The notes under the pieces: model-generated | Database searches by the model: none | What the model saw: only the letters and a program-made list of their open reading frames with translations | What the model was told of the DNA's origin: nothing | Part shown: piece after piece, positions 20,294-61,664 of the stretch | Layout: each line of letters opens with the position of its first letter | How positions within the stretch are numbered: position 1 is the first letter of the stretch | Position numbers and translations under genes: made by a program | NCBI GenBank assembly: GCA_003599535.1 | Contig: QZKQ01000033.1 | Span: 48,837 to 112,836, forward strand | DNA: 64,000 nucleotides | Origin: Candidatus Zixiibacteriota bacterium | Lineage (GTDB): Bacteria > Electryoneota > B3-LCP | Direction: 5' to 3'

Positions 20294-20730
20294 AATTCAC
20301 CGCAAAGACGCAGAGAACGCAGAGAAAATAGGATCCAGAAGCCGGCAGTCAGAAGAATAGGAGTCAGGAGTCAGGAGTCCGGAGATTCGGACGGCCATCC
20401 GTCAGCCGACGGATCGTGGCCCACACCCCGCAGGGGTGGTCCTTTAGTAGCCGTAGGTTTCAACCTACGGAGAAGGGGAATCCCATACCTCCTTTTCTAC
20501 AACCCTGAAGGGGTTGACCATAATCCGTTCAATCCGTTCCATCTGTTTCATCTGCGATTCTGACGTGGGGCCGCCAGGAATCGCTTCGCTTTCCCTAAGG
20601 GACCACTGCGTGGCAATCCTGGCGGTAACGAGGAATATTTCTCTGTAAGCCGTAGAGCACCCGCTTCAGCGGGTAGCATGATAGTAGCCCAGGAATTCAT
20701 TCCTGGGTGGGTTGCCAACCGCCACCTCCC
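20294..20730 (+). repeat. modular hairpin-rich intergenic mosaic, copy C (most complete)
   Basis: Module order: heptamer tract 20294-20385; GGCCATCCGTCAGCCGACGGATCGTGGCC; CACCCCGCAGGGGTG; CCGTAGGTTTCAACCTACGG; CCCTGAAGGGG; AATCCGT repeats ending ATCTGCGATTCTGAC (20550-20564); GCCGCCAGGA..TCCTGGCGG stem (20570-20625); ACCCGC-TTCA-GCGGGT; CCCAGGAAT-TC-ATTCCTGGG (20688-20707). Confidence 0.85.
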
Positions 20731-45346: not shown

Positions 45347-45476
45347 GGTACGTCCTTTGGATGGGAGAGCGGCGCAGATCCGGGGGCCGGAGTGCGCAAA
45401 ACGGGCGAAGAGGCGGACCGGATGATCCGCCCCTTCGGTTACTACCACACCATGGCGAGGGGCATGGAATCGCAGG

Positions 45477-47411
45477 TTACTTCATCAGGGTCATCTTGCC
45501 GACGGAGCGGACCTCGCCCGCCTGCAACACGTACAGGTACAGTCCCGAGGCCAAACCGGAGGCGTCGAAGGTGACTTCGTGCGAACCGGCCGCCCGCCAG
45601 CCGTCCACCAGGTCCGCCACCTGCCGCCCCTGCAGATCATAGACTGCCAGGCGCACCGGGGCGGCCTGGGCCAGGTCGAAGGCGATGGTGGTGGTGGGAT
45701 TGAACGGATCAGGGTAGTTGCCCTTCAAGGCGGTCGCCTGGGGCAGGGCCGTTCCCGGCAGCTCGAAGGTCTCGCTGACTTCGCCGTCGGACAGGGTGAC
45801 CGTGGCCGGACCTTCGGGGAGACCGTCGGTCGCGGACTTTTCGAACGTGAAGCTGTCGAAGTCCTCGATCACCGTGGGATGCTCGCCCGTGTACGCCGTC
45901 ACGGTGTAGGTTCCGGGCATGGTCGTGGAGGAGAGGGTCAGGCTGAGGGTCCGGGACAGGTTGCCTCCGGCCGGCAGGTACAGGTTGGTCCGCAGCACCA
46001 TGGGGATGATCTGGCCGTCCGGCTGCTGCAGGTTGTACCACCCGTCGAACAGGTTGAAGTAGAGCGGCGAATTCATGATGGACAAGCCGAACCATACCGT
46101 GCCCCCGGTGGGCGGCAGGACGATGGGGCTGCCGAACGGAGTCAGGGTAATGGCGCTGGTGCCCTGCGGCTGGTTCTGGTCGAAGTAGTGGGCGCCCATG
46201 TCGGCGATGGTGCCGTCGGGGTCCAGCGGCGCCTGGGGGCTGCCGGCGTCAATGCAGGGGCTGAAGGGCATCAGGTTGAAGTCGTCGCCGTAGGGGTTCA
46301 CGAAGAATGGCTGGACGTTGATGTTGCCGGCCCCGCTCCAGTAGACTTGGATATTGCTGTAGGTCAGGTAAATGCTGCATCCCGAGCTGACGTAGAAGGC
46401 GTAGCTGTTGCCGGTGATGATGTTGTTCCGGCCGAAAGGATTGGAGCTCAGGTAGGTGCGGATGGCGTAGCTGCCGTTGCCGTGGATGGTGTTATTGTCA
46501 ATGGTGGGAGAACAGTTGTCCCCGCAGTAGATGGCGGTGTAGTTGTTGAAGCAGATCTCGTTGTACATCAACAGGGGGCTGGCGAAATGCTGGCAGTACA
46601 CCCCGGCGCCATAGCTGGAGGAGGCGGTATTATGGTTGATCTTGCAGTTCTGTATCAGCGGCGAGCTGTGGTCCAGGAGAATGCCGCCGCCGTTGCTGGA
46701 AGTGGCGGAATTATAGTTGATCACATTGTCCGACAGCACGCCCCCGGTGTAGACCAGGAATAGGCCACCGCCGTTGTCGGCGCTGTTGGAAGTGATCACG
46801 TTGTCGTGAATGTCGGCGTTGTTGGTGTATTCCACGAACATACCGCCGCCGTCGCCGTTACAGGTGTTGTTAGTGATGAGATTGTCATGAATCGCGCCGG
46901 TGATATTATGGGCGAAGATGGCCCCGCCCTTGGTGTCCGCCTTATTCTGATAGAAACGGCAGTTGTGGATGCTGAGCGCGGCGCTGAGGGCGTGCACTCC
47001 GCCCCCCTTGCTGGAGGTCTGGCCCACCTGGCCCTGGGCGTAACCCCACTCGATCACACAGTAGGCCAATTCACTGGAGCCCACGGTATTTTCGAAGAAC
47101 AAACCCGCCCAGGTGTAGTTGGGGTAGGGAAGGTGGTGCGTGAAACGGATGGAATCCGTAGGGGTGCCGACCGCGGTCATGGGGCCGTGAGCGATGAGCT
47201 TGAACTGGCCGGTGAACTTGACTTCCACGCCGGGCTGAATCGTCAGACTCAGGGCCGCGGGAATTTCCACGTCCGCCAGCACCACGTAGGGCGATCCGGC
47301 GGTGGTCCAGGTGCCGCTGACCTGGCCGGCGACGTAGGTGTCGCACAGGGCCGGTTGCGTCCAGAAGGACAACAGGATCAACAGGCTGCCAAGGGGAATG
47401 AGTCGCTTCAT
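45477..47411 (-). CDS. secreted parallel beta-helix repeat protein with T9SS CTD (tandem paralog of 43418-45346)
   Basis: Signal peptide MKRLIPLGSLLILLSFWTQPALC. Collinear with its neighbour along the full length. CTD ..YPDPFNPTTTIAFDL..LAVYDLQGRQVADL..SGLYLYVLQ..KMTLMK. Start ATG at 47411. Confidence 0.8.
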   Translation of the reverse strand: MKRLIPLGSLLILLSFWTQPALCDTYVAGQVSGTWTTAGSPYVVLADVEIPAALSLTIQPGVEVKFTGQFKLIAHGPMTAVGTPTDSIRFTHHLPYPNYTWAGLFFENTVGSSELAYCVIEWGYAQGQVGQTSSKGGGVHALSAALSIHNCRFYQNKADTKGGAIFAHNITGAIHDNLITNNTCNGDGGGMFVEYTNNADIHDNVITSNSADNGGGLFLVYTGGVLSDNVINYNSATSSNGGGILLDHSSPLIQNCKINHNTASSSYGAGVYCQHFASPLLMYNEICFNNYTAIYCGDNCSPTIDNNTIHGNGSYAIRTYLSSNPFGRNNIITGNSYAFYVSSGCSIYLTYSNIQVYWSGAGNINVQPFFVNPYGDDFNLMPFSPCIDAGSPQAPLDPDGTIADMGAHYFDQNQPQGTSAITLTPFGSPIVLPPTGGTVWFGLSIMNSPLYFNLFDGWYNLQQPDGQIIPMVLRTNLYLPAGGNLSRTLSLTLSSTTMPGTYTVTAYTGEHPTVIEDFDSFTFEKSATDGLPEGPATVTLSDGEVSETFELPGTALPQATALKGNYPDPFNPTTTIAFDLAQAAPVRLAVYDLQGRQVADLVDGWRAAGSHEVTFDASGLASGLYLYVLQAGEVRSVGKMTLMK

Positions 47412-47560
47412 GATTGCTCCTCCGATGAGGGTAAGAACTGGATTGAGGGATTCTTTAGTGATCAAGCGAAAACCAGTGGAGGAATAGCATCTCATGCAGC
47501 CATAATGATCGTGGATTACACAATGCTTCCGTCGTAAGCACCGCCGAGACTACCGGCCAT

Positions 47561-49837
47561 TCATTTCAGCAGCAGCATCTTGGCGCTGACCCGGCCCAGA
47601 GGGGTAGTCAGGACCGCCAGGTACAGGCCCGAACTCAAGCTGCGGCCGTCGAAAGTCACGCTGATGATTCCCGCCTGGGCGGGTAGGGAAGCAACGGAAA
47701 TCCGCCGCCCGGCCAGATCATAAATTTCCAACTGCGCCTCGCCTCCGGGCGGCAGGGTGATATCCAGCCGGGCTTCCGCGTTGAAGGGGTTGGGCGACAC
47801 CCGCACGCCCCCTTCCCCCGGGACCGGCAGGCGGTCATCCCCGGCTTCCAGTCCCAGGGGAAGGTCCGTGTTCGTCTCCGGCCAAATGTCATCGCTGTGC
47901 CCGGGGCCTGTCTTCTGGAAATAGAGGTAAGCCAGGTCCGTGACCACATTGGGATAGTCCCCCAGCCGGACGTCGAAGCGATAAAATCCGGGCGGAGCGC
48001 CGCCGGGGACCATCTGGGTGAGGGTCACGAGAAAGGAATCCTGGGGACTCAGGGTGCGGTTCTGGCGCAGCAGCAGCGGCCCCACCACCGCTCCGCTGGG
48101 CATCACGACGGAGGTCCAGGCGTCCACCACGGCGGCCGAGGCCAGTTCGTTGCCCAGGGTGACATACATGGGCAGTTCGCCTCCCGAAGACGGCACCTGG
48201 AGCGGAACTGCGGCGGGATCAATGCGGACGAACACTTGGGGCTGGAAATATCCCGCCGAGTTGGCTCCGCCGGGCGTGGGAGCGCCGGCGGCGCCGTTCA
48301 GGTGCCAGTCGCTGCCGTAGCCGGTATCCAGGGATTGGGCGTTGCGGCCGTAGGTCTGCCCCACCCCGGGCTCGGGAAGGGTGAAGCCGGCCACGTGGTT
48401 GCCTCCCCAGGAGAGCGCATCGGTGATGGAGGTGTTGGTCATGGGGGCCGGCGCCGCGGTGTTGATCAGGGCGCACCCGTCCACGTCGTCATGCAGGGTG
48501 AAAAAACCCGCGCCGGTGAGGACCCGGGCGCCGGTGCCGCCCGTGACTTCAAAATCGGGGCGGAGACCGTAGCGGTTGCGGAAGAGGGATCCGTTGTGCG
48601 CCGCGACCAGGTGCTCGAAGGGGCCCAGCCAACTGGAAGGGGGAAACTGCCAGTGCTCCGGCGCTCCCAGCAGCCCGTTGGTGAACTTGTACCCGCCGAG
48701 GTTGAGCCATTGCGCCGTGGGATTGTACACCTCGACCCACTCCGATCCCTGGGTGAGATCCTGGGGAATGATCATGGCTTCGTTGATCAGGGGGACCTGG
48801 GGGTAGGGATGGATATAAGAGAAGGAGGACTGCCCCGGGTGTGAGGCTTCCCAGTCCAGGTATTCGCTGACCACCTCGCGGCACGTGCTGTAGCGGGCGA
48901 TGAGGTTGTTGCGGGGGGTGTAATGCCCCACGAAATTCGCCTCGATAAAATCCATGAAGGTGCTGATCTGTTGCTGGTAGTAGGGACTGAACAGCCAGAG
49001 ATGGGTCAGGAAACCGAAGGTCCAGACCTTGTAATTCAGCGAGTCGCCCTGCATCATCTCCTGAACCAGCCATTCCTGGTAGCACTGGTTCAGCGCCGCC
49101 TCCATGGCCGGCTCGGTGCAGTTGTAACCGTGGGCTTCGGGATTGCCGATCTGGGCGTAGTGGTCAATGTAGATGAAGGGACTGCTTAAATTCTCTTCCA
49201 GCTCGTGGCCCAGCCGGTTGTCGCTGCCCGGACGGAAGGGGTGGCGGATCAGGCGCCCCAGGTAATCCAGGCCCTTTTCCGACCGGTTGCCCGGGCCGGA
49301 CAGGAACCCGAACTGATTCATGAACTGCCCTTCGTCGCTGCACAGGAAGGGGAAGGCGCACATGGTGAGGTTGGAATCCGTCAATTGGTCCACCCAGTAT
49401 GTCGCATCGTTCCAGATCTGCTGGGTCCAGAGGGGATCATAGTTGGGGATACCGTACCGGCCGGTGGAATCCGTCACGTCCAGCCAGTTGAAGGGGCCCT
49501 GGTAGACCACGCTGTGGGCGTGGGTCCCCAACTCGTGGCCGTCGGCTTCCAGATCGCGGAACAGTTGCTGATCGCCGTAGTGCAGCACCCACTCGGCGAA
49601 ACTGCCGTTCATCAGGATGGTCATCTTGAAGGGGAAGGGGCGGCTGGCGGCTTCCTGCCGAAGCCATTGGAGAAAGGCGATGCGCGCCGCGTACCCCGTG
49701 GAATCGGGCGTCACCGGCTCAACGTGGATGATAAAAGCAATGTTGATGGGGGGTTCATACTGTACCGCACGGCCGGGGGAGCAAAGCGCTCCGACACCAG
49801 CCATTAGCAGAATCATCATCAGACTATATCGTCGCAT
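47561..49837 (-). CDS. secreted multidomain T9SS cargo (polysaccharide-deacetylase-like N-domain, lamin-tail domain, Ig-like module, CTD)
   Basis: Signal peptide MRRYSLMMILLMAGVGALCSPGRA. LTD-like ..INEAMIIPQDLTQGSEWVEVYNPTAQWLNLGGYKF... CTD ..VSPNPFNAEARLDITL..LEIYDLAGRRI..SGLYLAVL..KMLLLK. Start ATG at 49837. Confidence 0.72.
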   Translation of the reverse strand: MRRYSLMMILLMAGVGALCSPGRAVQYEPPINIAFIIHVEPVTPDSTGYAARIAFLQWLRQEAASRPFPFKMTILMNGSFAEWVLHYGDQQLFRDLEADGHELGTHAHSVVYQGPFNWLDVTDSTGRYGIPNYDPLWTQQIWNDATYWVDQLTDSNLTMCAFPFLCSDEGQFMNQFGFLSGPGNRSEKGLDYLGRLIRHPFRPGSDNRLGHELEENLSSPFIYIDHYAQIGNPEAHGYNCTEPAMEAALNQCYQEWLVQEMMQGDSLNYKVWTFGFLTHLWLFSPYYQQQISTFMDFIEANFVGHYTPRNNLIARYSTCREVVSEYLDWEASHPGQSSFSYIHPYPQVPLINEAMIIPQDLTQGSEWVEVYNPTAQWLNLGGYKFTNGLLGAPEHWQFPPSSWLGPFEHLVAAHNGSLFRNRYGLRPDFEVTGGTGARVLTGAGFFTLHDDVDGCALINTAAPAPMTNTSITDALSWGGNHVAGFTLPEPGVGQTYGRNAQSLDTGYGSDWHLNGAAGAPTPGGANSAGYFQPQVFVRIDPAAVPLQVPSSGGELPMYVTLGNELASAAVVDAWTSVVMPSGAVVGPLLLRQNRTLSPQDSFLVTLTQMVPGGAPPGFYRFDVRLGDYPNVVTDLAYLYFQKTGPGHSDDIWPETNTDLPLGLEAGDDRLPVPGEGGVRVSPNPFNAEARLDITLPPGGEAQLEIYDLAGRRISVASLPAQAGIISVTFDGRSLSSGLYLAVLTTPLGRVSAKMLLLK

Positions 49838-49969
49838 CCCGTATTTCTCCGGAAAAAAGATGGTGAGGTGTCCATTTGCACGCACCCTCACGCTGCCTGG
49901 TGATACGAAGCGAACCGTGCGGGTGGTATCCCGTGGCGGACTGCGCCCGAGACTCGGTCAGGCGGGGAC

Positions 49970-49999
49970 AATATAGGAAGTTTCCCCCAGGCAAATCAA
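49970..49999 (-). promoter_or_regulatory. sigma70-like promoter for the 47561-49837 gene (TTGATT-18-TATATT on minus strand)
   Basis: The minus strand reads TTGATT tgcctgggggaaacttcc TATATT, with an AT-rich UP-like tract immediately upstream (50000-50100). Confidence 0.4.
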
Positions 50000-50126
50000 G
50001 CGCAATTTTTTGCATATTATGCATTCCGTTGCATTTATATGTGATTATTGAGTTTGTGAATATTATTATTTTATATTTGCTTCATCCGGCGATAAACTCA
50101 CCCATGATATGCCTTTCGTCTGGTAG

Positions 50127-50381
50127 GGCGCTTCAGCCAACGGCGAGACCGTCATCCCCCTGGAGCTGCCGCAACGCTCGCAAGTGAAGATCGAGCTGTT
50201 CAACGTGCGCGGGCAGTCCCTGGGTGTCATTCATGACGGAATCGAAAACGCCGGTTGGCCCAAGATCCGCTACGATGCCTCAGCCCTGTCCTCCGGAGTA
50301 TACTTCTACCGAGTTATGGTGGAAGGGCTAGAGCGCAGCGGCAAGCACCAGAATACCGGAAAAATGCTCTTGCTGAAGTGA
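50127..50381 (+). pseudogene. orphan T9SS C-terminal sorting domain without passenger
   Basis: Frame open only from 50127. Translates ..NGETVIPLELPQRSQVKIELFNVRGQSLGVIHDGIENAGWPKIRYDASALSSGVYFYRVMVEG..GKMLLLK*, a complete CTD. No signal peptide or upstream domain. Preceded by about 25% GC DNA. Confidence 0.7.
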
Positions 50382-50444
50382 GATGACGTGATTATATTGG
50401 GAGGGCGGAGATTTCCCCGCCCTCCCTTCTGCTTGGAGACGACC

Positions 50445-52502
50445 ATGAGATGGCTGATGATACTATTGGGGTTATTGCCGATCCTGGCCACCGCCCAGGA
50501 TTTCACCTTTGAGTTGCAGCCGGAAGCGTTTCCCGTTGAGATAGAGGGCTGGGAACTCTTCCAACCATGGGCAGGCGGCTTGAACACCACCACGCCGGAA
50601 TGTTGCGACCTGGATGGAGATGGCGATCTGGATTATCTCAGTGGTGGTTCTGGTGATTACTACTACGCCTACTTCACAAATATCGGGACGGAAACAGATC
50701 CGGATTTTCAATATCTCACCCACCAACTGGATTCCCTGCGGGCCATGGATGTGGATCTGGTGGATATGGATCATGACGGGGATCAGGATGCGGTCATGAG
50801 TGGCCTATGCTATCGCAACCTGGGCTCATCCAACCAATACAATTTTGCCGCTGTAGCGGATACCCTCTACGACCCTGCCGGCAACCAACTTATCTGCCCA
50901 CGCACCGCGGCGGTGGACATTGATGCCGATGGGGATTATGACATCTTGGCGGGGCAGATGAATGGCACCCTGCGCTTCTATCAAAATATGGGCTCCCCCG
51001 AAATTTACCTTTTTCAGCGCGGTGTTGGCAATTGGCAGAACATTCAAGTCTGGCCTGATCCCTATCACTACACCGATCCCTGCTTTGCCGATCTGGATGG
51101 CGATGGCGACCTGGACCTGCTGGTGGGGGCGGGGGACGGCACGCTCTCCTACTACCGCAACGACGGCACCCCCCAGAATGCGGCCATGACATTGGTATCC
51201 AGCAGCTACCTGAACCTGGACGTGCAGTTTGACGCCTCGCCGGAACTGGCCGACATCGACTCTGACGGGGATCTGGACTTATTCGTGGGCCGCAGTCCCG
51301 CCGGAGGCCAGGATCGCACCCCGGGCGATGTGTACTTCTTCCGCAATGAAGGTACGACTCAAAACCCCGCTTTCCAGTGGGTCACCACCAACTACCTGAC
51401 CTGGGATAACGGCGCCGAAGCCCGACCCCGGCTGGTGGACATTGACACCGACGGTGATCCTGATCTGTTCTCCCCCATCGGCGGCCGCCTCTTTTTCTAC
51501 CGCAACCAAGGCAGCGCACCATCCCCCCGCTTCGTCTTCGAGACCGACACTTTCCAGAATATCGCGGTCTTTGATAATGAACCCTGGTTTGTGGATCTGG
51601 ACGGGGATGGGGACTACGACCTGTTGGCCGGGGAAAGCGCCTTCCCGCCGCCCGGACCGGGCTTGCACCTGTATCTCAACCAAGGCACGCCCCAGGAACC
51701 AGATTTTGTCCTGTATAGCGATGATCTTCTGCCCGGCTGCTTCAACGATGAAATTGTGCTTAGTCCCTGGACAGCCGATATAGATGCCGATGGAGATCAA
51801 GACCTGTTCGTCAGCACCGGACGATTGTGGTACTTTGAGAATGTCGGCACTTCCGCGCACTTCCGGTTTGAACTGGACAGCAACAACTGGCAGAATATCG
51901 GCGCGCCCAATTACGGGTTGGCCTGGGGCTGCTTCTGGGATATCGATGGGGATCTGGATCTAGATCTGTTCATCAACAGCGAGAATTACGGCTGGTTTCC
52001 CTGGGAGAAGAACCTGACCTTCTACCGCAACACCGGCACGGCGCAGAATGCCGTGATGGTGCTGGAGGACGATGACCTCTTCCCGGAGCTGATGATCTGG
52101 CAGGCAGCGCCCTTTCTCTATGATATGGACTTAGATGGGGATGGGGATCTGTTTGTGGGAGACGAGTGGGGCGGGATCCGTTACTTCGAGAACACCACCG
52201 GGGACACGGCCTACAGCCCCTACACCAAACCCCGCCCGCAGCGGGTGATGGATTTGTCGCTGTCACCCCAACCCGGCAACCCCACCACGGCCATCTCCTT
52301 CCAACTGCCCTACGCTCAGGAGGTGGACTTGGCGGTGTACAATCTCCTGGGGGCAAGGGTGGCGACACTGGCCTCGGGGAGGATGAACGCGGGGAGCTAT
52401 TCCCTGCCGTGGGCCTCCGACGGGTACGCCTCCGGGATCTACTTCGTGCGGCTGACCACCCCCACCGAAACCCTCACCCGGAAGCTGGTGATCCTGCAGT
52501 AA
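50445..52502 (+). CDS. FG-GAP/VCBS repeat protein with T9SS CTD
   Basis: Signal peptide MRWLMILLGLLPILATAQ. At least 10 repeats of D(L/I/M)DGDGD(L/Y/Q)D(L/Y)L-type calcium-binding loops (..DLDGDGDLDLLVGAGDGTLSYYRNDG..). CTD ..PQPGNPTTAISFQLP..VDLAVYNLLGARVATL..SGIYFVRL..KLVILQ. Confidence 0.85.
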   Translation: MRWLMILLGLLPILATAQDFTFELQPEAFPVEIEGWELFQPWAGGLNTTTPECCDLDGDGDLDYLSGGSGDYYYAYFTNIGTETDPDFQYLTHQLDSLRAMDVDLVDMDHDGDQDAVMSGLCYRNLGSSNQYNFAAVADTLYDPAGNQLICPRTAAVDIDADGDYDILAGQMNGTLRFYQNMGSPEIYLFQRGVGNWQNIQVWPDPYHYTDPCFADLDGDGDLDLLVGAGDGTLSYYRNDGTPQNAAMTLVSSSYLNLDVQFDASPELADIDSDGDLDLFVGRSPAGGQDRTPGDVYFFRNEGTTQNPAFQWVTTNYLTWDNGAEARPRLVDIDTDGDPDLFSPIGGRLFFYRNQGSAPSPRFVFETDTFQNIAVFDNEPWFVDLDGDGDYDLLAGESAFPPPGPGLHLYLNQGTPQEPDFVLYSDDLLPGCFNDEIVLSPWTADIDADGDQDLFVSTGRLWYFENVGTSAHFRFELDSNNWQNIGAPNYGLAWGCFWDIDGDLDLDLFINSENYGWFPWEKNLTFYRNTGTAQNAVMVLEDDDLFPELMIWQAAPFLYDMDLDGDGDLFVGDEWGGIRYFENTTGDTAYSPYTKPRPQRVMDLSLSPQPGNPTTAISFQLPYAQEVDLAVYNLLGARVATLASGRMNAGSYSLPWASDGYASGIYFVRLTTPTETLTRKLVILQ

Positions 52503-52618
52503 ACTTCTCTCGCTCGCCCCGTAACTTCCCCCACGAAAAAGCCCCTGAAGGCCCACCATCGCCGGGTGAGATCCGGAGGCCACGCCCGAAATCCGGGAAT
52601 TGCCTGCCTGTACGCGTG

Positions 52619-52671
52619 TGGGCCCAGCAGGATTCGAACCCGCGACCCACGGATTAAAAGTCCGTTGCTCT
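52619..52671 (-). tRNA. 3'-terminal fragment of tRNA-Lys(UUU); 5' acceptor strand and D-arm missing
   Basis: The reverse complement is AGAGCAACGGACTTTTAATCCGTGGGTCGCGGGTTCGAATCCTGCTGGGCCCA. It contains the anticodon arm ACGGA-CTTTTAA-TCCGT, the T-arm GCGGG-TTCGAAT-CCTGC, and the acceptor 3' strand plus discriminator A. Adjacent sequence has no GGGCCCA or GCTC D-stem. Confidence 0.75.
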
Positions 52672-52699
52672 TGTGCGGGAAAAGGGGCAAAATCGGGCG

Positions 52700-52721
52700 T
52701 TTTGCAGTAGTTTTGCAGTAG
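52700..52721 (+). repeat. tandem direct 11-mer TTTTGCAGTAG x2 next to the tRNA fragment
   Basis: ttttgcagtag ttttgcagtag begins 28 nt from the truncated end of the tRNA fragment. Candidate recombinase arm-type sites. Confidence 0.6.
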
Positions 52722-53273
52722 TCGCATGAAAACGGGCCGGACTTGCGTCCGCGTGAGTCCGGTCCGGCCGTTAACGCAACGGTCGCTGGGCCTGCCTGAG
52801 AAATCCCTTGCTCTTTGAAATAGGTTAGCTATCTACACTTTTTCGGCACTATCCTACGCGGGCCGTGCGCCAGGTAGGTATGGCAGCGTTGCGCCGGAAA
52901 ACCGGCAGCAAGCAACTGTGTTTTCGTGAAGGAAGCACTTTCCTGACGGGCGGCGCGGTCGGTGGATGCTGAGCTGGCTTCTCTCATTGAATCAGGCTTC
53001 CCTCGCCCACCTGCTGGGAGAGGTCAACACGTTCCCAGGCTTATAGAGCCTTCCCGACCAGAATGCGCTTGACGCTGCCCCGAAAATATTCTGTCGGGTA
53101 GGGGGGGGTATGTTTCTCCTGAAACCGAAATCCCGAATCCAAGGTGGGGGGCTTTGCCGCCGACGGGAGGTTTTAACTTCGCCCCCTCCCAGAAGCCGGT
53201 CAGGGACGGACTTCAGAATGCTGCCTCAATCAGGAGTGACAAGGGATAAAGATCCAGAAATTGAAGAAATTAC

Positions 53274-53302
53274 TTGACTTTGGGAGAAAGTTGCTCTATA
53301 TT
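53274..53302 (+). promoter_or_regulatory. sigma70-like promoter (TTGACT-17-TATATT)
   Basis: cTTGACTttgggagaaagttgctcTATATTa, 156 nt before ATG 53459. Near-twin of the promoter at 59897-59925. Confidence 0.55.
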
Positions 53303-53458
53303 AGAATTGAGTTCTAACCTGTGGGGGTTAGCGTGCCAGGATCTTCCCAAGCGCTAAGGACATTCCCCTCCCAAAATGGCTGCCCGAAGCCGGAGCGCGG
53401 TGATGCCCCGGAACGGGCGCTTTACGTTTGACCACCCCAAGCTGAAAAGAGACCAACG

Positions 53459-55141
53459 ATGAAGAAGCTGCCGTTACTGCTGATAAGCCTGGTTATACTG
53501 GCTGCCCTAGTAGCCCCCGCCCCCGCCCAAGCCCAGTGGCCTACCACCCCCCGCGAATTCCTCTCTGTGTCCGCTATTCCCGATACCATGGAGGCCTATC
53601 CTTCCATCTTTTCCCTGGCCGGCGGTAGGACCATAATAACCTTTTTTAAAGATGGGGCGGGGCAATGCTATCAGGTCCTAAGCGCGGACGGTTATACGAT
53701 GTTCACCGTGCCCCCTCTGATCGCCACCACCGCAGCCGGTCCCTATTCTTATTCAACCAAAATGCTTCCCACCCCTGATGGTGGGGTTTACGTGGTGTGG
53801 CAGAATATCTATGGCAGCCCTTTCCCCGGCACCTATGCCCAGCGCCTGGATTCCCTGGGCAACCGCCTGTGGGGAGATGCCGGAGTGTTGATCCATCCCG
53901 CGCATTGGAACGATTTCGACATCTGCCCCGATGGCCAGGGCGGGTTCTTCGCCGCCGTCAACACTCTCCCCTTGACCCCCACGATGGACCTGGCGGGGCA
54001 ACACGTTTCCCTGGCCGGGGAGCTGCTGTGGGGCGCCGCCGGCTTGCCTCTGATCACTTATCTTGAGGCGCAGCAGTTTCCCGCCGTCGCCCCTGACGAG
54101 CAGGGAGGTCTCTATGTCATCTGGGAGGACCGCCGCCCCCCCAACCCTGGTTTCGGCCGGATCTTCAGTCAACGCTTCGACGGGCAAGCCCAACCGTTAT
54201 GGGCACCGGCCACGGGAAGAGAGATCTGGCCCGGCAGCGGCTCCTTCCGCCAGATTTTCCCTGACGGGCAGCACGGCTTCATTGTCTACCACGGCGGGGG
54301 GACCAACTGGAACCACTTGGCTCGCTACAGCCCGGAGGGCCGGCTGCGGTGGAGAAACGATGAGGCTGGGGCGGGCGATCCTGCCAAGATGGTGGCCGGG
54401 GAGCCCGGCTACTTCTACTTCGCTTGGGTGGAGCATTTCCATTGGAAGACGATCTACGGCCAGCGCGTGGACTTGCAGGGACGTTTTCACTGGTCGGGGC
54501 CTTCCGGCGGCGCCCAGGTCATCTCGCCACTAGAAGGGGCCTGGCAGATTATCTACCCGGAGCTGGATTGTTTCTACCGGGACAGCAGTTTCTGGGTGGC
54601 GGAGGCTTACAAGGTATCGCATAGCCCCAGCCTGAGGTTTCCTTTCCGAATCTATGTGCAGGCTCTGGATGCCCAAGCTAATCCCCGCTTTGGTTCCCAA
54701 GGACTATATATCTGTTCCCAAGCCTTATCCAGCCACACCGTGGCGAATCTGAGCGCCGCCACTGATGGATCGGATGGCATTGTGACCGTTTGGGCGGATC
54801 GCTTGATAGGATCGGTATCAGAGGAAGATGTGTTCGCCAGTCATACCAATGCCGACGGAAGCTTCGGCATTCCGCCTGCAATGACTGTCGGCGCTTACTC
54901 TGTGCAAATTAAACGGTCTGATTCAGCTAGCATAGTCTATCAGATCAATGCCCCCGGCATCGTGAGTGTAACTCTCTTCGATCTTCTGGGGAGAAAAATC
55001 AATTCTCTACAAGACGGTCTACAAGCGCCTGGCAATCATTCATTATCTCTAAGTCACCTCTCCTTGCCTTCTGGGGTATATATAGTCACGATCAGAGTGG
55101 ATAACCAGATCATCGCCGGTAAGGTTGCACTGATTAAATAA
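53459..55141 (+). CDS. secreted DGxGG-repeat (beta-propeller-like) protein with T9SS CTD
   Basis: Signal peptide ..APAPAQA/QWPTTP. Repeats PDGGVYVVWQN..YAQRLDSLGNRLWG, PDGQGGFFAA, DEQGGLYVIWEDRR..FSQRFDGQAQPLW, ..YGQRVDLQGRFHW. CTD ..VSVTLFDLLGRKINSL..SGVYIVTIRV..KVALIK. Confidence 0.75.
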   Translation: MKKLPLLLISLVILAALVAPAPAQAQWPTTPREFLSVSAIPDTMEAYPSIFSLAGGRTIITFFKDGAGQCYQVLSADGYTMFTVPPLIATTAAGPYSYSTKMLPTPDGGVYVVWQNIYGSPFPGTYAQRLDSLGNRLWGDAGVLIHPAHWNDFDICPDGQGGFFAAVNTLPLTPTMDLAGQHVSLAGELLWGAAGLPLITYLEAQQFPAVAPDEQGGLYVIWEDRRPPNPGFGRIFSQRFDGQAQPLWAPATGREIWPGSGSFRQIFPDGQHGFIVYHGGGTNWNHLARYSPEGRLRWRNDEAGAGDPAKMVAGEPGYFYFAWVEHFHWKTIYGQRVDLQGRFHWSGPSGGAQVISPLEGAWQIIYPELDCFYRDSSFWVAEAYKVSHSPSLRFPFRIYVQALDAQANPRFGSQGLYICSQALSSHTVANLSAATDGSDGIVTVWADRLIGSVSEEDVFASHTNADGSFGIPPAMTVGAYSVQIKRSDSASIVYQINAPGIVSVTLFDLLGRKINSLQDGLQAPGNHSLSLSHLSLPSGVYIVTIRVDNQIIAGKVALIK

Positions 55142-55180
55142 ATTTTCCATGAACTACCAATTTAATGAAGAGAGGTCATC

Positions 55181-58100
55181 ATGCAGCGCTCAATTCTCGC
55201 TAGTGTGCTACTGGCCGCGCTTTTTACCACCTCCATCCAGGCACAACCGATCCCTTGGGAGTATCACCGCATGCCCGGCGGTTCGGAGGAGGAAACCATC
55301 ATTGTGGATGAAACTCTGGGCCAAGAAGCGGTTAAGGGGCTCTGGATAACCGAGAAACAAGGCGGCATGTATTGGACAGAGTGGAATTCGACTTCAAACA
55401 GCTTCGACCCATGCGATGCGAATAGCGAATTTGATGCCCATTATCCCTGGTGCATGGGCGCTGATGTGCATTCTGTTGGAGGAACATATTCCGGGCTGTA
55501 CACCGTAGCCGCCACCTATAATGCGACTCAATGGTATAAACACTTCACAGGAGAACCATCAAATTGGGGCTACGAAAGTAACTTACCCATTCGTTCCAAC
55601 AATCTTTATCGTTGGCATGACGCTCTGCTGGTCGCCGATGGAAGCGGCAACTTTCTTCCCGATCAATACGTCGTCTCCGCCATGCAGGAATGGTCATCGG
55701 CCGCCGCTTCCCTACGTAAAGGCCTATATGTGTGCCGAACAGGTAATTCAACTCCCGTCCTTCTTACAGATTCGGATTACCACTATGATTACCGTTCGTT
55801 TTATCGTGATTTAGACGATGGGAAAGTCTTTTACACGTTTTACAATGCCACTACGCATCCTACTGACCCAAGCTGCGCGTTTCAGAAGTGGACCATGAGC
55901 GGCACTGGGCCATCACTAACTGGGAGTTCTGTCTCAGACTTTGCTTCCGGTTACGTGCTTAAGGAGGTCGGCGATTTCTATCAGTACATTGAGCCGGACC
56001 CGTCACCGGGAGACAACGATGTCCGTCACCAATTCCTGGAAGCCGAATCCAAACCCACTGGAGGCGATTATACTTGGGATGTCTGGCACCGCGAGAAAAT
56101 CGGTTCGACCGGAACTTACACGACGTGGACGAAAATTTTATCGGATTTAGGCAACATTAATGCAATCAGAGGCACGAAGAATGCGGACATCGTGGCCTAT
56201 CGACCGATCGGTGGAGATTATCATATCTACTTGGGTATCGGTCTGCGCGGATTAGTTTTAGTGAAAGGATTGCCGTCATCGACTTGGTCATATACCCTGC
56301 TGAATGGTTCCATCTCCAATGGTTTTCTGTACAGAAGCGGCACCCGCAGCCTGAACTTGCGGCCGCGATCATGGGTGACAGGTAGCAGCCCACCTGATCA
56401 AGTGATCGTAGGTGGGGTTCACGGCGGCCTCCAAGTCGCCAAAATCAGCCTGGCTGGTCCATCGGTTGATAGCTATGTGTCTTTAGATAACTGGGGAGGA
56501 GGGGTACGCGGAACTGCCCAAAAAGCGGGCTCCTATGTCTTTGATGTGGTAGCAAATGGACCAAATTATTACTTTTTCCATGACGCCTTGGGCGTTTTCA
56601 AGGCCGCTACCAGCTCTGATCCGGATGATTGGGTAACATATACTAGGTTAGGACTAAGCACTACCGACCTTACCGCCCGGACTGATTTCAACATCTGCTT
56701 GAGAAACGGGTGTTTTTCTCCTTTTCCCGGGGAGAGCAATATCCTTTATCTGGGAGGCCAAGACAGACAGTACATTAACGGTTTATCTTCAACCACTCAG
56801 CTGCATCGAGGGGGCATGTGGAAACTGGATATTTCAAGTCCCACAAATTCCCTGACGCGGCCTGCAGATATATCGCTTCTGGTGGAAACTGGAAAACTGT
56901 CTGCCATCGTCACAGAAGATGCAGGGGCTGGGGAACCGATCCTGTATTATGCCTCACCAAGTAACTCGAGGAGTGATGATGAATCGTTAAGGGATGAAGG
57001 CCCCTACAACATTTATCGATACAAGCAGGGAAGTCCTTCTACTGTAGAGGATATTTGGGATACTGACGCAATTGAGTATACGGTTTATCACTGGTTAGCT
57101 GGACCTCTAGGCGAGAACATGCATGCCGGCATTTTTTGCCTGGAGGCGCATCCCACCGTCAAGGGGGTCGTATATGGATTAAGTATGCCGGCACCGCCCC
57201 TGGACTGGGATGATCTTTACCAAGGTACAGAAAACGGTGGTGGTTTGGGATATGTCTACCGGTCGGTCGTTGGTCCTCCTGAAGTTTGGACACCAGAACC
57301 GGTAGTGCAGTGTCATAACGCACCAGATTATTTCCAGAATGTGGTAGACATGGTAGCGGAGTACCCTTTATCACCAGCCGGTGCTGACCATCAGAAGGTG
57401 GATATGCTGGTGGCTTGTGCTGCTTTCGAATTATCGCATAAGAGTGAGGACCCATTCCGCTATGGTGGTCTTTTTAAGGTGCACTATGGCGGCAGTGCCT
57501 GGCAAGTAACTGATGTTACTCCCCCCGTAGGCAGTGATTATAGGCTGTCTCCCGCTTCCGGCGCGTTTTCCCATCCGGCAGTTGTGGGGGTGGATAGTGT
57601 GGCGCTGAGTGCATCCAGTAGAATTTATGTTTGTGTGACTAGCGGCGAGGACAACAGCGTTGTCGGGCTTGATGAATGGACCAGCCATGTGTGGTACCAA
57701 CGGGCCGCCGGTATTGCAAACCTTACGGCATCGGGTTGGAGGAAATTCCCCAGCCCCATCCCCTCCATAGCTAATGGCATAATACCGTATACAAACTCCG
57801 CGGGGGAGACCAAGCCGTTGGTGTCATGGGGCCCTGTCATCGTCAACAAGTACCACAACAATGCCATTGATCTCTTTGTGGGAGGTGTTAGCGGCATCCG
57901 GTACACGATGACCACCGGGCCTGTGGATCAGAGCCAGGCTTGGGAAGGGATGGTGATCCTTGATGATAATGTGACCGTAAATAACGGCGCTACCCTGACC
58001 CTGAATCCTGGCTGCCAGATTGTAGCGAACGGCGACTTCGGCATCACCGTGGATTCGGGCTACATCAAGGTGGCCTACCCCGACAGCGACCGGGTGGTGT

Positions 58101-59785
58101 TCACCGCCGCCGAAGGGGTGCGCTGGGAAGGCCTCACCTTCAAGAACATGCACCCCGACAGCACCCCCACGGTCGAGAACCTGGAGATCCGCAACGCCGA
58201 CGTGGGGATCTACATCGACGACAACGCCACCCACTCGGTGCGCCTGACGGTGCAGAACTGCCTCTTCGACGGCAACAGCACCGCCATCGCCGCCTCCCAG
58301 GCCGACCGCCTCCGCATCGCCAACTGCACCATCCGGAATTGCGTCAAGGACAGCGTCGGCAACGGCGACGGGATCTACCTGTTCAATCCCTCCGCCGGCG
58401 TCAACCATATCGTTGAGAACAACGAGATCTACGGCAACGACGGCTGCGGGGTGCGCCTGTCCAGTTGCCCGGCCACGGTGGTCGTGCGCAACAACGCCAT
58501 CCACGACAACCTGGAGCAGAACAGCGCCGGCTACACCACCTGGGCGGGGGTGTACTGCTACAACAGCTCGCCCAAGGTCCTGACTACCGAAGTCAGCGAA
58601 GCGAACGGCTACCCCCTGGCGGCCTTCAACTCGGCGGCGCCCTACCTGTGCCCCGGCCCGGACTCCACCAACCGCTTCGAGCTGACCATGAGCCCGCCGG
58701 ATACCTACGCCGTGATTTTCGCCGACGGCGGCTTCCCGGTGATGAACAACGCCCACAACAACTTCAGCCACGCTGGCAGCGGCAGCGCCCTCCTAATCCG
58801 GGACGTCACCTCATCGCCGCCGCTGCGCACCGTGAAGTACAACTGGTGGGGCGTCTCTTCCCCGGCCACCGACCAGTACAGCCCCACCAGCATAGATTAC
58901 ACCCCCTGCCTGACCAGCGCCGAAGGGTTCCCCACGGGCCTGCCGGCGCGGGGCATCTACACGGAGGATTCCACCGCCTACGGGCTGCTGGCCGACGCGC
59001 TGGCCGCCGCCGAAGTCGAGAACTACGCCCTGGCCTACCAGCTTCTGGTCACGTTAATGGAGACCTATCCCAATGAAGGCGATGCCGTCTGCCAGGCGCT
59101 GCCCCACCTGTACAACAACGGCCTGCTGGCTTCGATTCCAGCAACGACACTCTATGCTTACTTAGACAACCTCTATCTAGAGAATCCCGGCACCCTGGTG
59201 GGCAAGACCGCCCGCAAGGTGCGCAACGACTGCGCCGTGTACCAGGGCAACTACCAGGCGGCGTTGAACGACTACCAGGCGATCATGGCTGACCCTGAGA
59301 CCCTGGCCGATTCGGTGTATGCGGCCATTGACGCCAATCAGGTCAACCTGATCCTTTCCGGCTCGGGGATGCCGGGCATCATGGCGGTCGGACCGTTGAA
59401 CCCCGGCAGCGCCCAGGAGTGCATGAAGCGGGAAGCACAGCTCATGGCCCTGCTGTACGGCAGCGGCGGCCCGGCCGGCCCGGCCTTGCCCCAGAGCTTC
59501 GCCCTGCACCAGAACTTCCCCAACCCCTTCAACCCTGTGACCACCATCCAGTATGACCTGCCGGAGTTGTCCCAGGTGAAGATCACCATCTATAACATGC
59601 TGGGGCAGAAGGTGGTGACGCTGGCGGACGGGCTGCAGACGGCCGGGTACAAGAAGGTGATGTGGGACTCGCAGCGCGCCGGGGTAGTGCTGGCCAGCGG
59701 GATCTACGTCTATCACTTCGAGGCCACGGGAAAAGTCACAGGCAAGACCTTCACCACAGCCAAGAAGATGTTGCTGCTGAAGTAG
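55181..59785 (+). CDS. giant (1534 aa) secreted protein: unknown N-terminal about 920 aa + parallel beta-helix (PbH1) repeats + TPR-like segment + T9SS CTD
   Basis: Signal peptide MQRSILASVLLAALFTTSIQA. Beta-helix repeats from about 58000 (..LEIRNADVGIYID.., ..LFDGNSTAIAA.., ..NNEIYGNDGCGVRL.., ..NNAIHDN..). CTD ..NFPNPFNPVTTIQYDLPELSQVKITIYNMLGQKVVTL..SGIYVYHFE..KKMLLLK. Confidence 0.8.
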   Translation: MQRSILASVLLAALFTTSIQAQPIPWEYHRMPGGSEEETIIVDETLGQEAVKGLWITEKQGGMYWTEWNSTSNSFDPCDANSEFDAHYPWCMGADVHSVGGTYSGLYTVAATYNATQWYKHFTGEPSNWGYESNLPIRSNNLYRWHDALLVADGSGNFLPDQYVVSAMQEWSSAAASLRKGLYVCRTGNSTPVLLTDSDYHYDYRSFYRDLDDGKVFYTFYNATTHPTDPSCAFQKWTMSGTGPSLTGSSVSDFASGYVLKEVGDFYQYIEPDPSPGDNDVRHQFLEAESKPTGGDYTWDVWHREKIGSTGTYTTWTKILSDLGNINAIRGTKNADIVAYRPIGGDYHIYLGIGLRGLVLVKGLPSSTWSYTLLNGSISNGFLYRSGTRSLNLRPRSWVTGSSPPDQVIVGGVHGGLQVAKISLAGPSVDSYVSLDNWGGGVRGTAQKAGSYVFDVVANGPNYYFFHDALGVFKAATSSDPDDWVTYTRLGLSTTDLTARTDFNICLRNGCFSPFPGESNILYLGGQDRQYINGLSSTTQLHRGGMWKLDISSPTNSLTRPADISLLVETGKLSAIVTEDAGAGEPILYYASPSNSRSDDESLRDEGPYNIYRYKQGSPSTVEDIWDTDAIEYTVYHWLAGPLGENMHAGIFCLEAHPTVKGVVYGLSMPAPPLDWDDLYQGTENGGGLGYVYRSVVGPPEVWTPEPVVQCHNAPDYFQNVVDMVAEYPLSPAGADHQKVDMLVACAAFELSHKSEDPFRYGGLFKVHYGGSAWQVTDVTPPVGSDYRLSPASGAFSHPAVVGVDSVALSASSRIYVCVTSGEDNSVVGLDEWTSHVWYQRAAGIANLTASGWRKFPSPIPSIANGIIPYTNSAGETKPLVSWGPVIVNKYHNNAIDLFVGGVSGIRYTMTTGPVDQSQAWEGMVILDDNVTVNNGATLTLNPGCQIVANGDFGITVDSGYIKVAYPDSDRVVFTAAEGVRWEGLTFKNMHPDSTPTVENLEIRNADVGIYIDDNATHSVRLTVQNCLFDGNSTAIAASQADRLRIANCTIRNCVKDSVGNGDGIYLFNPSAGVNHIVENNEIYGNDGCGVRLSSCPATVVVRNNAIHDNLEQNSAGYTTWAGVYCYNSSPKVLTTEVSEANGYPLAAFNSAAPYLCPGPDSTNRFELTMSPPDTYAVIFADGGFPVMNNAHNNFSHAGSGSALLIRDVTSSPPLRTVKYNWWGVSSPATDQYSPTSIDYTPCLTSAEGFPTGLPARGIYTEDSTAYGLLADALAAAEVENYALAYQLLVTLMETYPNEGDAVCQALPHLYNNGLLASIPATTLYAYLDNLYLENPGTLVGKTARKVRNDCAVYQGNYQAALNDYQAIMADPETLADSVYAAIDANQVNLILSGSGMPGIMAVGPLNPGSAQECMKREAQLMALLYGSGGPAGPALPQSFALHQNFPNPFNPVTTIQYDLPELSQVKITIYNMLGQKVVTLADGLQTAGYKKVMWDSQRAGVVLASGIYVYHFEATGKVTGKTFTTAKKMLLLK

Positions 59786-59817
59786 CGCATGAGGCCTTCC
59801 CTGACGGGAGAAATACC

Positions 59818-59847
59818 AGGGGCAGGCCGGTGGACCTGCCCCTTTAT
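59818..59847 (+). terminator. rho-independent terminator after the giant gene
   Basis: AGGGGCAGG-ccggtgga-CCTGCCCCT followed by TTAT. Confidence 0.6.
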
Positions 59848-59896
59848 GCGGGTGCTGTCCATCAATAATCAAAATGCCCCGCTCTGATCATTGTTC

Positions 59897-59925
59897 TTGA
59901 CTTGGGCAGTTTTTGTCAGTATATT
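59897..59925 (+). promoter_or_regulatory. sigma70-like promoter (TTGACT-17-TATATT)
   Basis: cTTGACTtgggcagtttttgtcagTATATTa, 35 nt before ATG 59961. The TTG start at 59913 in the ORF track lies inside this promoter. Confidence 0.55.
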
Positions 59926-59960
59926 ATTTCCGAAACTCCTACCCTGACATGGAGCCTCCC

Positions 59961-61640
59961 ATGCGCACTTTACTTTTGCTGATAATCCTGACCCTGCTGG
60001 CCACTGTGTGGCTGGCCGCCCCCGCCTTCGCCCAGTGGTCCACCACGCCTTATGGCGACCTGACGATTTACGCCGGTCCGTTTTCGTACAATCAGGTTTG
60101 GTTAATCCCGGATCCCTGCCAACTGGGAAACGGCGATTTTCTGGTGTTTTACCAGGTAGCAACCGCCGGCAACACCTATCATGTCTATCTCCAGTTGATT
60201 GATCCTCAAGGCGCCAAGCAGTGGGGCGGGGACGGCATTCCGATCAGCACGGCGGATGATTCCACCCAGTACGGTGGGCACATGATCCCCGACGGGCAGG
60301 GCGGGGCATTTCTGGTCTGGTGGGTGGCGCGCGAGACCGGACCCGACTACGAGCTGTACGGCCAGCATCTCGGACCCGAGGGCCAATTCCTGTGGGATTC
60401 GGCCGGGGTGTTGTTGGTCACGCCGGGACAGGACATCACCTGGTATGAGATAGACCTGTGCGGAGACGGGGAAGGGGGCTTCTACCTGGCCTGGAGCCAG
60501 GAGGAATCGGCCACCTGCTCCAACTCCGATCCCTACCTGCAGCGCTTCGACAGCCTGGGGCAGGCCCTGTGGCCCCAGCCGGCAGCCCTGTGCCTCTATC
60601 CCGACAGGGACCAGGTGGAGCCCAAAGTGTGTCTGCGGGAACGGGGCGGATGCTTCGCCACCTGGTCGGACATGCGCAGCGGGTGGTACTACACCCAGGC
60701 CCGGCAGAAGGTCACCGCCGAGGGCCAGATCCTGTGGGGTCCCACCGGTATCTATCAGAACGATGCCGGCACCGCCCAAGCGCAGTTGCAGGCCCATCCG
60801 GCGGGGGGATTCCTCTATCTCGACGGCGCCTGTATCTATCATTTCGGGGAGGAGGGGCAGATTCTCTGGGAGGTGGAGATCGGCGGCGATATGCCCGGCG
60901 TCTCTGCCAACCAATTTGCCGTATCGCCCAGCGGACGGCTGTACACCCCCTTCTTTTCGGATTACTTCAACACCGGCGACGACGATTGGGACATCTTTGC
61001 CCAGTGCCTGAACTTCAGCGGGGACCATCTCTGGAGCCCCCGGTATCCGCTGCTGGCGCGGGAACCTGGCGATTGGCAAGTGGAGCCACTCATCGCCCTG
61101 ACACCCGACGGCTTCCTTACCGCCTATGAGCAGCCTCGTCATGGATTGTATCACGGCAACATTTTCTTTCAGATCGCCGACAGCCTGGGGCAGCCGCAGT
61201 TGAACCGGCACGGGGCGCCGCTGCGCATCTCGCACCGCGAGAAGCAGTTGAAGGCTCTGATCCCGGATGGCACAGGCGGGGCCATCGCCTTTTGGGAAAA
61301 AACGGGTTCACCCTATACTTTGCACGCCAACCGCATCCTGTCGGATGGGTCGCTGGGGTATCCGGAACCGGCGCCGGCAGTGAAGCGGGAGCAGCAAGAA
61401 ACCGCTGAGCTGTCGGTGGGTGGCAACTTCGTGCAAGTGAAATTACCCCAAGCCGGGGAAGTGAGGGCGGCGCTATATAATCTCCTGGGGCAACAGGTGA
61501 AGCTGATAATGGACGGTGGGCAGGAAGCGGGCCGGCACCATTATACTATAGACACTCGGGGACTGGCCTCGGGAGTGTATTTCGTAAGGTTGCAATATCA
61601 GGGAGAGGTACGCACCACCAAGATCATTCTGTCGCGGTAG
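59961..61640 (+). CDS. secreted DGxGG-repeat protein with T9SS CTD (paralog of 53459-55141)
   Basis: Signal peptide MRTLLLLIILTLLATVWLAAPAFA/QWSTTP. Repeats PDGQGGAFLVWWVARE..YGQHLGPEGQFLW, GDGEGGFYLAWSQEE..YLQRFDSLGQALW, ERGGCFATWSDMR, PDGTGGAIAFWEK. CTD ..VRAALYNLLGQQVKLI..SGVYFVRLQ..KIILSR. GGAG lies 6 nt before ATG 59961. Confidence 0.75.
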   Translation: MRTLLLLIILTLLATVWLAAPAFAQWSTTPYGDLTIYAGPFSYNQVWLIPDPCQLGNGDFLVFYQVATAGNTYHVYLQLIDPQGAKQWGGDGIPISTADDSTQYGGHMIPDGQGGAFLVWWVARETGPDYELYGQHLGPEGQFLWDSAGVLLVTPGQDITWYEIDLCGDGEGGFYLAWSQEESATCSNSDPYLQRFDSLGQALWPQPAALCLYPDRDQVEPKVCLRERGGCFATWSDMRSGWYYTQARQKVTAEGQILWGPTGIYQNDAGTAQAQLQAHPAGGFLYLDGACIYHFGEEGQILWEVEIGGDMPGVSANQFAVSPSGRLYTPFFSDYFNTGDDDWDIFAQCLNFSGDHLWSPRYPLLAREPGDWQVEPLIALTPDGFLTAYEQPRHGLYHGNIFFQIADSLGQPQLNRHGAPLRISHREKQLKALIPDGTGGAIAFWEKTGSPYTLHANRILSDGSLGYPEPAPAVKREQQETAELSVGGNFVQVKLPQAGEVRAALYNLLGQQVKLIMDGGQEAGRHHYTIDTRGLASGVYFVRLQYQGEVRTTKIILSR

Positions 61641-61664
61641 GGAAACCGCGATTGTTTTTATCCG

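Follow-up and report, generated by a model that had tools for sequence, protein, structure and literature searches.

How does the 3′ part of a tRNA gene come to lie, without the rest of the gene, among genes for secreted proteins? This question is raised by a stretch of DNA of 64,000 nucleotides (the window, referred to below as the 64-kb window) from an uncultured FCB-group bacterium, in which positions 52619-52671 of the minus strand correspond to the 3′ part of a gene for tRNA-Lys(UUU). The attP site of elements that integrate into tRNA genes (tDNAs) carries the 3′ part of the tRNA gene, and the regenerated gene and the displaced fragment bracket the element. In tDNA islands, the island separates the regenerated tDNA from the displaced 3′ fragment, which lies further downstream and has the orientation of the tDNA (PMC4383910). 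In the Islander collection, such a 3′ fragment was present in 3760 of the 3919 islands, and 2083 had a site centred on the anticodon (Hudson, Lau and Williams 2015; PMC4383910). Fragments of tRNA genes have been described as arising widely from the integration of mobile elements, and rearrangement can later part the partners (PMC9897764).

Read directly on the minus strand, the 53 nt at 52619-52671 are AGAGC-A-ACGGA-CTTTTAA-TCCGT-GGGTC-GCGGG-TTCGAAT-CCTGC-TGGGCCC-A, i.e., tRNA positions 21-73. The first half comprises the 3′ strand of the D-stem, a perfect anticodon arm with UUU and a variable loop of 5 nt; the second half comprises the T arm (one G.U pair; loop as in the consensus), the 3′ strand of the acceptor stem and the discriminator base A. 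Directly 3′ of the fragment is CAC, so CCA is not encoded. The Rfam tRNA family (RF00005) matches 52627-52676 of the minus strand with 30.6 bits (gathering score 29; E=0.02 for the 64-kb window), which is the sole Rfam match in the window. The fragment was aligned with a reference set of 70 intact tRNA-Lys(UUU) genes on IMG/VR viral contigs, found by means of a 20-mer from the anticodon arm. The best of the 70, those on contigs L109, L145, L159 and L164, are identical to it at 50 of 53 positions, and have the acceptor sequence GGGCCCA, as the 3′ strand of the fragment requires. With its stems and conserved loops intact, the locus is the 3′ part of tRNA-Lys(UUU), as the original prediction had it, lying on the minus strand and truncated at 52671.

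The limits of the fragment are equally sharp. In the alignment with the 70 intact genes, similarity breaks off exactly upstream of AGAGC. When the whole intergenic spacer was compared with phage and plasmid records by blastn, the tRNA part alone matched, the matches ended at 52671, and the phage records concerned carry a tRNA-Lys annotation there. The D-arm and the 5′ acceptor strand had been described as absent; this holds for the acceptor 5′ strand, the D-stem 5′ strand and the D loop, whereas the D-stem 3′ strand (GAGC) has been kept. The complete cloverleaf, paired acceptor stem and D arm of a functional tRNA gene are lacking, and ARAGORN called no complete tRNA in the whole window. The 5′ half of tRNA-Lys (GGGCCCATAGCTCAGnnGG, allowing up to 3 mismatches) was not found in the 64-kb window; a split tRNA with its 5′ half elsewhere in the window was rejected, as that half is absent from it. 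A search of the window for a second copy of the fragment, or for tandem islands, also found none. The fragment sits in non-coding DNA, and the reading frames that overlap it have no Pfam match. Two properties by which Islander recognizes its fragments can be seen here: the fragment is an end piece (extending to the discriminator A) rather than an internal piece, and it overlaps no conserved protein domain.

On balance, the fragment is probably, though not securely, the scar of the far end of an integrated mobile element. The 53 nt would then be what was originally the 3′ end of a tRNA-Lys(UUU) gene, now displaced. An element with a tyrosine integrase and its own copy of the tRNA segment would have recombined within the gene, probably in the region of the anticodon loop; the 5′ part of the tRNA, completed by the copy supplied by the element, would have been shifted to the far side of the insert, and the old 3′ end would have stayed at the original downstream flank of the gene (52618 leftwards). 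The DNA to the right of 52671 would thus all belong, or once have belonged, to the element, and the repeats of TTTTGC type that lie 16-50 nt within it would be candidate binding sites for the recombinase or for an accessory protein. The integrase mechanism and the side of the element are what we infer. Given that the 3′ fragment lies downstream of the regenerated tDNA (PMC4383910), any island would lie to the right of 52671, and the original prediction, which had placed the element on this side, agrees with the Islander rule. Integration is favoured here by four features taken together: the fragment is an end fragment, it starts by the anticodon stem, it sits at a non-coding site and there are repeats at the junction.

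Among the closest known systems is the “A” (anticodon-centred) class of Islander. There, as here, a 3′ end fragment reaches the discriminator base and is situated in non-coding DNA, its start is a few bases 5′ of the anticodon stem, and the element could lie on the 5′ side; the start at tRNA position 21, just 5′ of the anticodon stem, fits this class. Islander islands differ in having a cognate intact tDNA and a tyrosine integrase, neither of which is seen in the window, and the visible interval here has neither mobility genes nor a sharp compositional edge. Elements that target tRNA-Lys include those of the PAPI-1/pKLC102 family of Pseudomonas aeruginosa and the mycobacteriophage Tweety; these share the target isoacceptor and the distal duplication of the tRNA-Lys 3′ part, and the resemblance is one of principle only. 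In PYG1 of Pyrococcus yayanosii CH1, which is flanked by one partial and one complete tRNA-Gln gene, a partial tRNA of about 44-53 nt marks the end of the element, as would be the case here; however, PYG1 has both direct repeats and is a defined element of 21.4 kb (PMC9897764), whereas a single repeat is visible here, and the host of PYG1 is an archaeon, whereas the present host is an FCB-group bacterium. Partial tRNA stumps like that of PYG1 can be picked up by tRNA search tools (PMC9897764). The Arg-TCT tRNA of Thermococcus kodakarensis, with separated partial and full copies, provides a parallel for an orphan fragment with no partner nearby, in a region that shows signs of rearrangement (PMC9897764).

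Wider searches with the 3′ end of the fragment mostly returned tRNA-Met. A 50-mer of the fragment and a degenerate Lys-specific pattern had no match in 185,579 species genomes. In JGI metagenomes, the 30-mer of the 3′ end was found only in two intact tRNA-Met genes of another organism (L098, L099), the last 30 nt of which are the last 30 nt of the fragment in the window. In IMG/VR, the 22-mer of the 3′ end was found mostly in tRNA-Met genes or in their 3′ fragments. Five IMG/VR contigs (L082, L083, L087, L088 and L089) carry bare 3′ fragments of tRNA-Met(CAT) that start at the anticodon loop, and the 22-nt T-arm/acceptor end of these is identical to that of the window fragment. These fragments look like anticodon-centred att sites, and illustrate the same att design as that proposed for the tRNA-Lys fragment.

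What lies immediately beyond the truncated end? The DNA at 52672-52699 has no similarity to tRNA, both by direct reading and in the alignment with the 70 tRNA-Lys genes. Within it, GCAAAA (52687-52692) forms an inverted pair with TTTTGC (52700-52705), with a spacer of 7 nt between them. The tandem 11-mer that had been reported next to the fragment was found as described: two copies of TTTTGCAGTAG occupy 52700-52721, 28 nt from the truncated end, and the perfect tract extends over 52699-52722 of the plus strand as a tandem duplication of the 11-nt unit GTTTTGCAGTA. This is a candidate arm-type protein-binding site. Perfect tandem duplications with units of 9-25 nt are more frequent in the window than in Markov-shuffled sequence (7 observed vs about 0.2), and the chance of finding one within 50 nt of the junction is about 1%, a post hoc figure based on a background of about 1.1e-4 per nt. 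Other short perfect tandem duplications, in or near intergenic DNA, are at 40960-40991, 20308-20326 and 20522-20539 (14- and 9-nt units).

The original prediction had taken the 11-mers for candidate arm-type sites of an integrase, a suggestion to which further searches lent no support. Arm-type sites are short motifs that recur in the att arms and to which the N-terminal domain of the integrase binds. There is no further copy of TTTTGCAGTAG nearby with up to 1 mismatch, and the tandem 11-mer was found nowhere else in the 64-kb window; the copies of the motif, with one att end visible, amount to the two tandem TTTTGCAGTAG units and one inverted TTTTGC hexamer. The tandem 22-mer had 0 matches in viral contigs. 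The exact 22-mer TTTTGCAGTAGTTTTGCAGTAG does occur in the non-coding DNA of five unrelated genomes (L172-L176), i.e., those of a Nitrospirae MAG, Ichthyocystis, a Bacteroidales MAG, a Nanobdellati archaeon and Edaphobacter, where the genes beside it are housekeeping genes, for GGDEF, URO-D, TonB-receptor, KdsB, GatD, FtsZ and GyrA. Taking into consideration a frequency of 6.5 tandem duplications of 11 nt per Mb (determined from 1.23 Mb of unrelated loci), about 7.6 matches to the 22-mer would be expected by chance. As 5 were observed, the recurrence of the 22-mer was rejected as evidence.

The fragment and its junction lie in an intergenic spacer of 956 nt, between the end of one gene at 52502 and the start of the next at 53459. 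The predicted gene-free DNA of about 750 nt was borne out, as the 737 nt at 52722-53458 wholly contain no open reading frame longer than 55 aa. Outside the tRNA part, the spacer contains no Rfam family and has no similarity to phages or plasmids by blastn. Ten stop-free segments of the spacer, of 45-110 aa, had no Pfam match at E<=1; the two longest of these extend leftward across the tRNA fragment. The remains of an integrase or of another gene were looked for across the 956 nt and rejected, since no frame had a Pfam match. An inverted repeat of 11 nt (CGGGCCGGACT / AGTCCGGTCCG) lies at 52733-52766 on the minus strand, with a short T run (GTTTTCATG) following 3′ on that strand, so that the hairpin faces the fragment. 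A terminator at this position was rejected: the fold is not significant against shuffled sequences (z=-1.4), and a terminator scan made no call. Further to the right, a sigma-70-like promoter match at 53274-53302, upstream of the gene that starts at 53459, probably serves that gene.

The genes on either side of the spacer have a bearing on whether the fragment is the edge of anything. The first 43 kb of the window (1-43 kb) consists of housekeeping genes, including lspA, genes for an ABC/FtsX transporter, rpiB, glyA, ispG, and genes for the glycine-cleavage P subunit, a DinG-like helicase, MiaB-like radical-SAM enzymes and an M42 peptidase, together with others. From 43.4 kb on, there are genes for secreted proteins with T9SS C-terminal sorting domains (CTDs), recognized by means of Pfam and NCBIfam. 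To the left of the fragment, three of these are on the minus strand (43418-45448, 45477-47495 and 47561-49891); the left neighbour of the fragment, 50388-52502, is on the plus strand, convergent with the fragment, and its product has FG-GAP repeats and, at the C-terminus, a T9SS sorting domain. The right-hand block (53459-64000), which would be the element side, has five genes for secreted proteins, all on the plus strand, with no mobility genes and of mosaic composition: three have T9SS tails, i.e., 53459-55141, 55181-59785 (beta-helix) and 59913-61640, and two, 61665-62546 and one from 62543 to beyond 64000, match no family. For 53459-55141, the database gene call is a protein of 517 aa that starts at an internal Met, and the open reading frame is of 560 aa; the start of the latter, with a typical signal peptide (MKKLPLLLISLVILAALVAPAPAQAQ), is the more likely one. 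The true start of 59913-61640 is probably at the internal MRTLLLL.

T9SS cargo had been put forward as the mark of an island. As genes with T9SS tails are present on both sides (43418-52502 and 53459-61640), the fragment lies in the middle of the cluster rather than at its edge, and the cargo cannot serve as such a mark. Two of the three right-hand sorting domains are also as like the left-hand CTDs as these are like each other: those of 55181 and 59913 have 36-46% identity to the left-hand CTDs, compared with 28-42% among the left-hand CTDs themselves, and that of 53459 is at the low end with 28-32%. Pfam, NCBIfam and PHROGs revealed no family of integrases, excisionases or transposases and none of phage or conjugation proteins in the 64-kb window, and a search for a tyrosine integrase in the 11.3 kb from the fragment to 64000 found none. 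The putative interval would extend over 11.3 kb or more, the length range for Islander islands being 2-200 kb. The part of it within the window has the look of host-type genes for secreted proteins, of mosaic composition. If there was an element, it would have to be a large one that has a long cargo end, or else an old one that has eroded.

Comparison with relatives distinguishes the two sides to some degree. The nearest proteins of the host are in LCP-89 and Zixibacteria-like MAGs. The left-hand proteins have homologues at 55-62% identity in MAGs that are mostly labelled “bacterium”, and in some cases candidate division LCP-89, Zixibacteria or FCB group; for the FG-GAP protein (50388-52502), homologues of up to 62% identity are found in uncultured FCB-group MAGs. 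By contrast, the nearest homologue of the first right-hand protein (53459) is 34% identical, with none above 35%, and this far greater distance speaks for integration. SHMT has homologues of at most 68% identity, which implies that there is no close genome among the species representatives. The neighbourhoods of homologues of left-hand genes (FG-GAP and LTD) and of the right-hand gene 53459 were compared with the window (L091-L097, L170-L171 and L177-L179); gene order shared with the window, or a tRNA-Lys near the homologue, was found in none of them. The right-hand proteins have no relatives on viral contigs.

Base composition and codon usage show no step at 52671, whether judged by codon usage, tetranucleotides or GC. 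Up to 49891, GC3 is core-like (0.81-0.88), as is the synonymous-codon likelihood. From the FG-GAP gene (50388) onward, GC3 is 0.72, then 0.66, 0.67, 0.75, 0.73 and 0.67, and the mean log codon usage of the right-hand genes is -1.08 to -1.31, compared with -0.70 to -0.96 for the core. The patchy shift in codon usage and tetranucleotides begins at about 49.5-50.4 kb (near 50.0 kb), which is some 2.6 kb before the fragment on its left. In the tetranucleotide scan, z exceeds 3.9 at 49-51 kb, dips at 51-53 kb, peaks at about 10 over 54.5-58.5 kb, i.e., over the N-terminal two-thirds of a gene for a protein of 1534 aa, returns to 1-2 at 57.5-62 kb and rises again at 61-64 kb. Patches of low GC had been noted on the right, and are indeed present there (49-53% at 55-58 kb), but low GC is found already at 50-51 kb, on the left. 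Low GC3 is, moreover, at least in part a property of the gene family, since in L091, the nearest relative with a readable locus for this comparison, both FG-GAP genes are low outliers (GC3 0.52-0.58 vs 0.65-0.78 in their neighbours). The 1534-aa beta-helix T9SS gene (55181-59785) has a GC of 0.49-0.53 over about 54.5-58.5 kb and 0.655 at 58-59 kb, where its composition is core-like, which points to a recombinant gene whose N-terminal part is foreign.

Several of these observations weigh against integration: no intact tRNA-Lys, 5′ half or second fragment lies within the window, no mobility family is present, T9SS cargo occurs on both sides and composition does not step at the junction. They also bear on the stronger version of the same explanation, which was that of the original prediction, i.e., that a discrete island of more than 11 kb extends from 52672 to an intact tRNA-Lys and a tyrosine integrase beyond 64000, with T9SS cargo and with the 11-mers as arm-type sites. 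The geometry is correct for such an island (PMC4383910), the contig of 125,527 bp leaves room for it (up to 61.5 kb beyond the window), the tRNA fragment is undecayed, the right-hand codon usage is atypical, and the first right-hand gene is at most 34% identical to anything known. However, the visible 11.3 kb has no mobility gene, the composition shifts 2.6 kb outside the proposed boundary and has core values again at 57.5-62 kb, the “native” side carries the same kind of cargo, FG-GAP/T9SS genes are low in GC3 in the core chromosome of a relative also, and no viral relatives were found. The arguments from composition, cargo and the 11-mers gave the claim of a discrete island no support when tested, and such an island, which would depend wholly on sequence beyond 64000, is possible rather than probable.

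Plain deletion or rearrangement is a serious rival in a cluster that is demonstrably unstable, although it is unlikely to be the correct explanation. The fragment would then be a tRNA pseudogene that arose by deletion or illegitimate recombination in a hypervariable cluster of secreted-protein genes, with no integrase involved, the rearrangement having taken the 5′ third of a resident tRNA-Lys and the DNA upstream of it. That such events occur in this cluster can be seen from a second truncated gene nearby. Preceded by an AT-rich stretch (49990-50110), the region at 50127-50381 of the plus strand is the orphan 3′ end of a T9SS gene: its translation gives the last approximately 80 codons, with an in-frame stop before them, and the product is 64% identical to residues 446-525 of a 525-aa protein in the relative L091. 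This stump, which lies just upstream of the FG-GAP gene and 2.5 kb to the left of the tRNA fragment, is a scar of truncation. Thus, gene-truncating rearrangements occur in this cluster, and they do so in a manner other than by an integrase, which counts against a scar of integration. Furthermore, the 2.5-kb block 50127-52671 has gene 3′ stumps at both ends, the relatives examined show no conserved order of the genes that surround these families, and neither an integrase nor a partner copy is visible in the window. Against plain deletion, a random breakpoint would not favour an exact att-like segment, from the 5′ edge of the anticodon stem to the discriminator; long 3′ end fragments are mostly derived from integration in the literature (PMC4383910, PMC9897764); and loss of a tRNA-Lys(UUU) gene would need another copy elsewhere.

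The two stumps also allow a different reading, namely that the block 50127-52671 (T9SS stump, FG-GAP gene and tRNA stump) was copied as a patch from a related genome or another locus. Both ends of the block cut genes; it has a composition of its own (GC3 0.72, tetranucleotide z of about 4-5), unlike the core to its left and the DNA at 54-58 kb; and in L091 the gene for the 525-aa T9SS protein sits directly between two FG-GAP genes. However, no locus was found that could be the donor and has a tRNA-Lys next to it, the L091 locus has no tRNA, the FG-GAP protein of the window is most like the one encoded before the 525-aa gene in L091 and not the one encoded after it, and two independent events explain the data equally well, which makes an imported or relocated patch improbable. 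An artefact, be it a sequence that resembles tRNA by coincidence or a metagenome assembly wrongly joined at conserved tRNA sequence, is very improbable, given that 50/53 identity to real tRNA-Lys genes with perfect stems is not chance, that a misjoin within a shared tRNA segment would give a whole chimeric tRNA and not a truncated one, and that the contig is present in both JGI/IMG and NCBI (though maybe as a single assembly), despite its origin in a metagenome-assembled genome and despite tRNA sequence being shared among organisms, as in the 30-nt 3′ end that is identical to that of the tRNA-Met of another organism.

Orphan 3′ fragments of tRNA genes are common and well understood, and nothing at this locus departs from the known kind. 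It is doubtful that this uncultured high-GC FCB-group bacterium carries a large tRNA-Lys island, with T9SS beta-propeller and beta-helix genes as its cargo end and TTTTGCAGTAG as its arm sites. If it did, the T9SS cargo repertoires of these lineages would be exchanged on mobile elements that target tRNA genes. Should the matching tRNA-Lys and an integrase be located past the end of the window, the fragment would give the exact position of one end of a mobile island in a poorly known candidate lineage. This would help to map the mobilome of uncultured FCB bacteria without being conceptually new. If the partner is absent, the fragment would be one more tRNA stump in a rearranging gene cluster; as its score exceeds the Rfam threshold, it would then serve as a caution in the annotation of tRNA genes.

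Finally, in relatives, the LTD-domain T9SS gene that is orthologous to 47561-49891 is found within a few hundred bases of a tRNA gene. In L178 and L179, a tRNA-Glu lies upstream of the LTD gene (9683-9757 and 6061-6133, respectively). In L095, a tRNA-Asn (10627-10700) lies near the LTD gene, beside a small GIY-YIG gene, and CBASS-like genes (CD_NTase_C, Cap15) are situated about 9 kb away.
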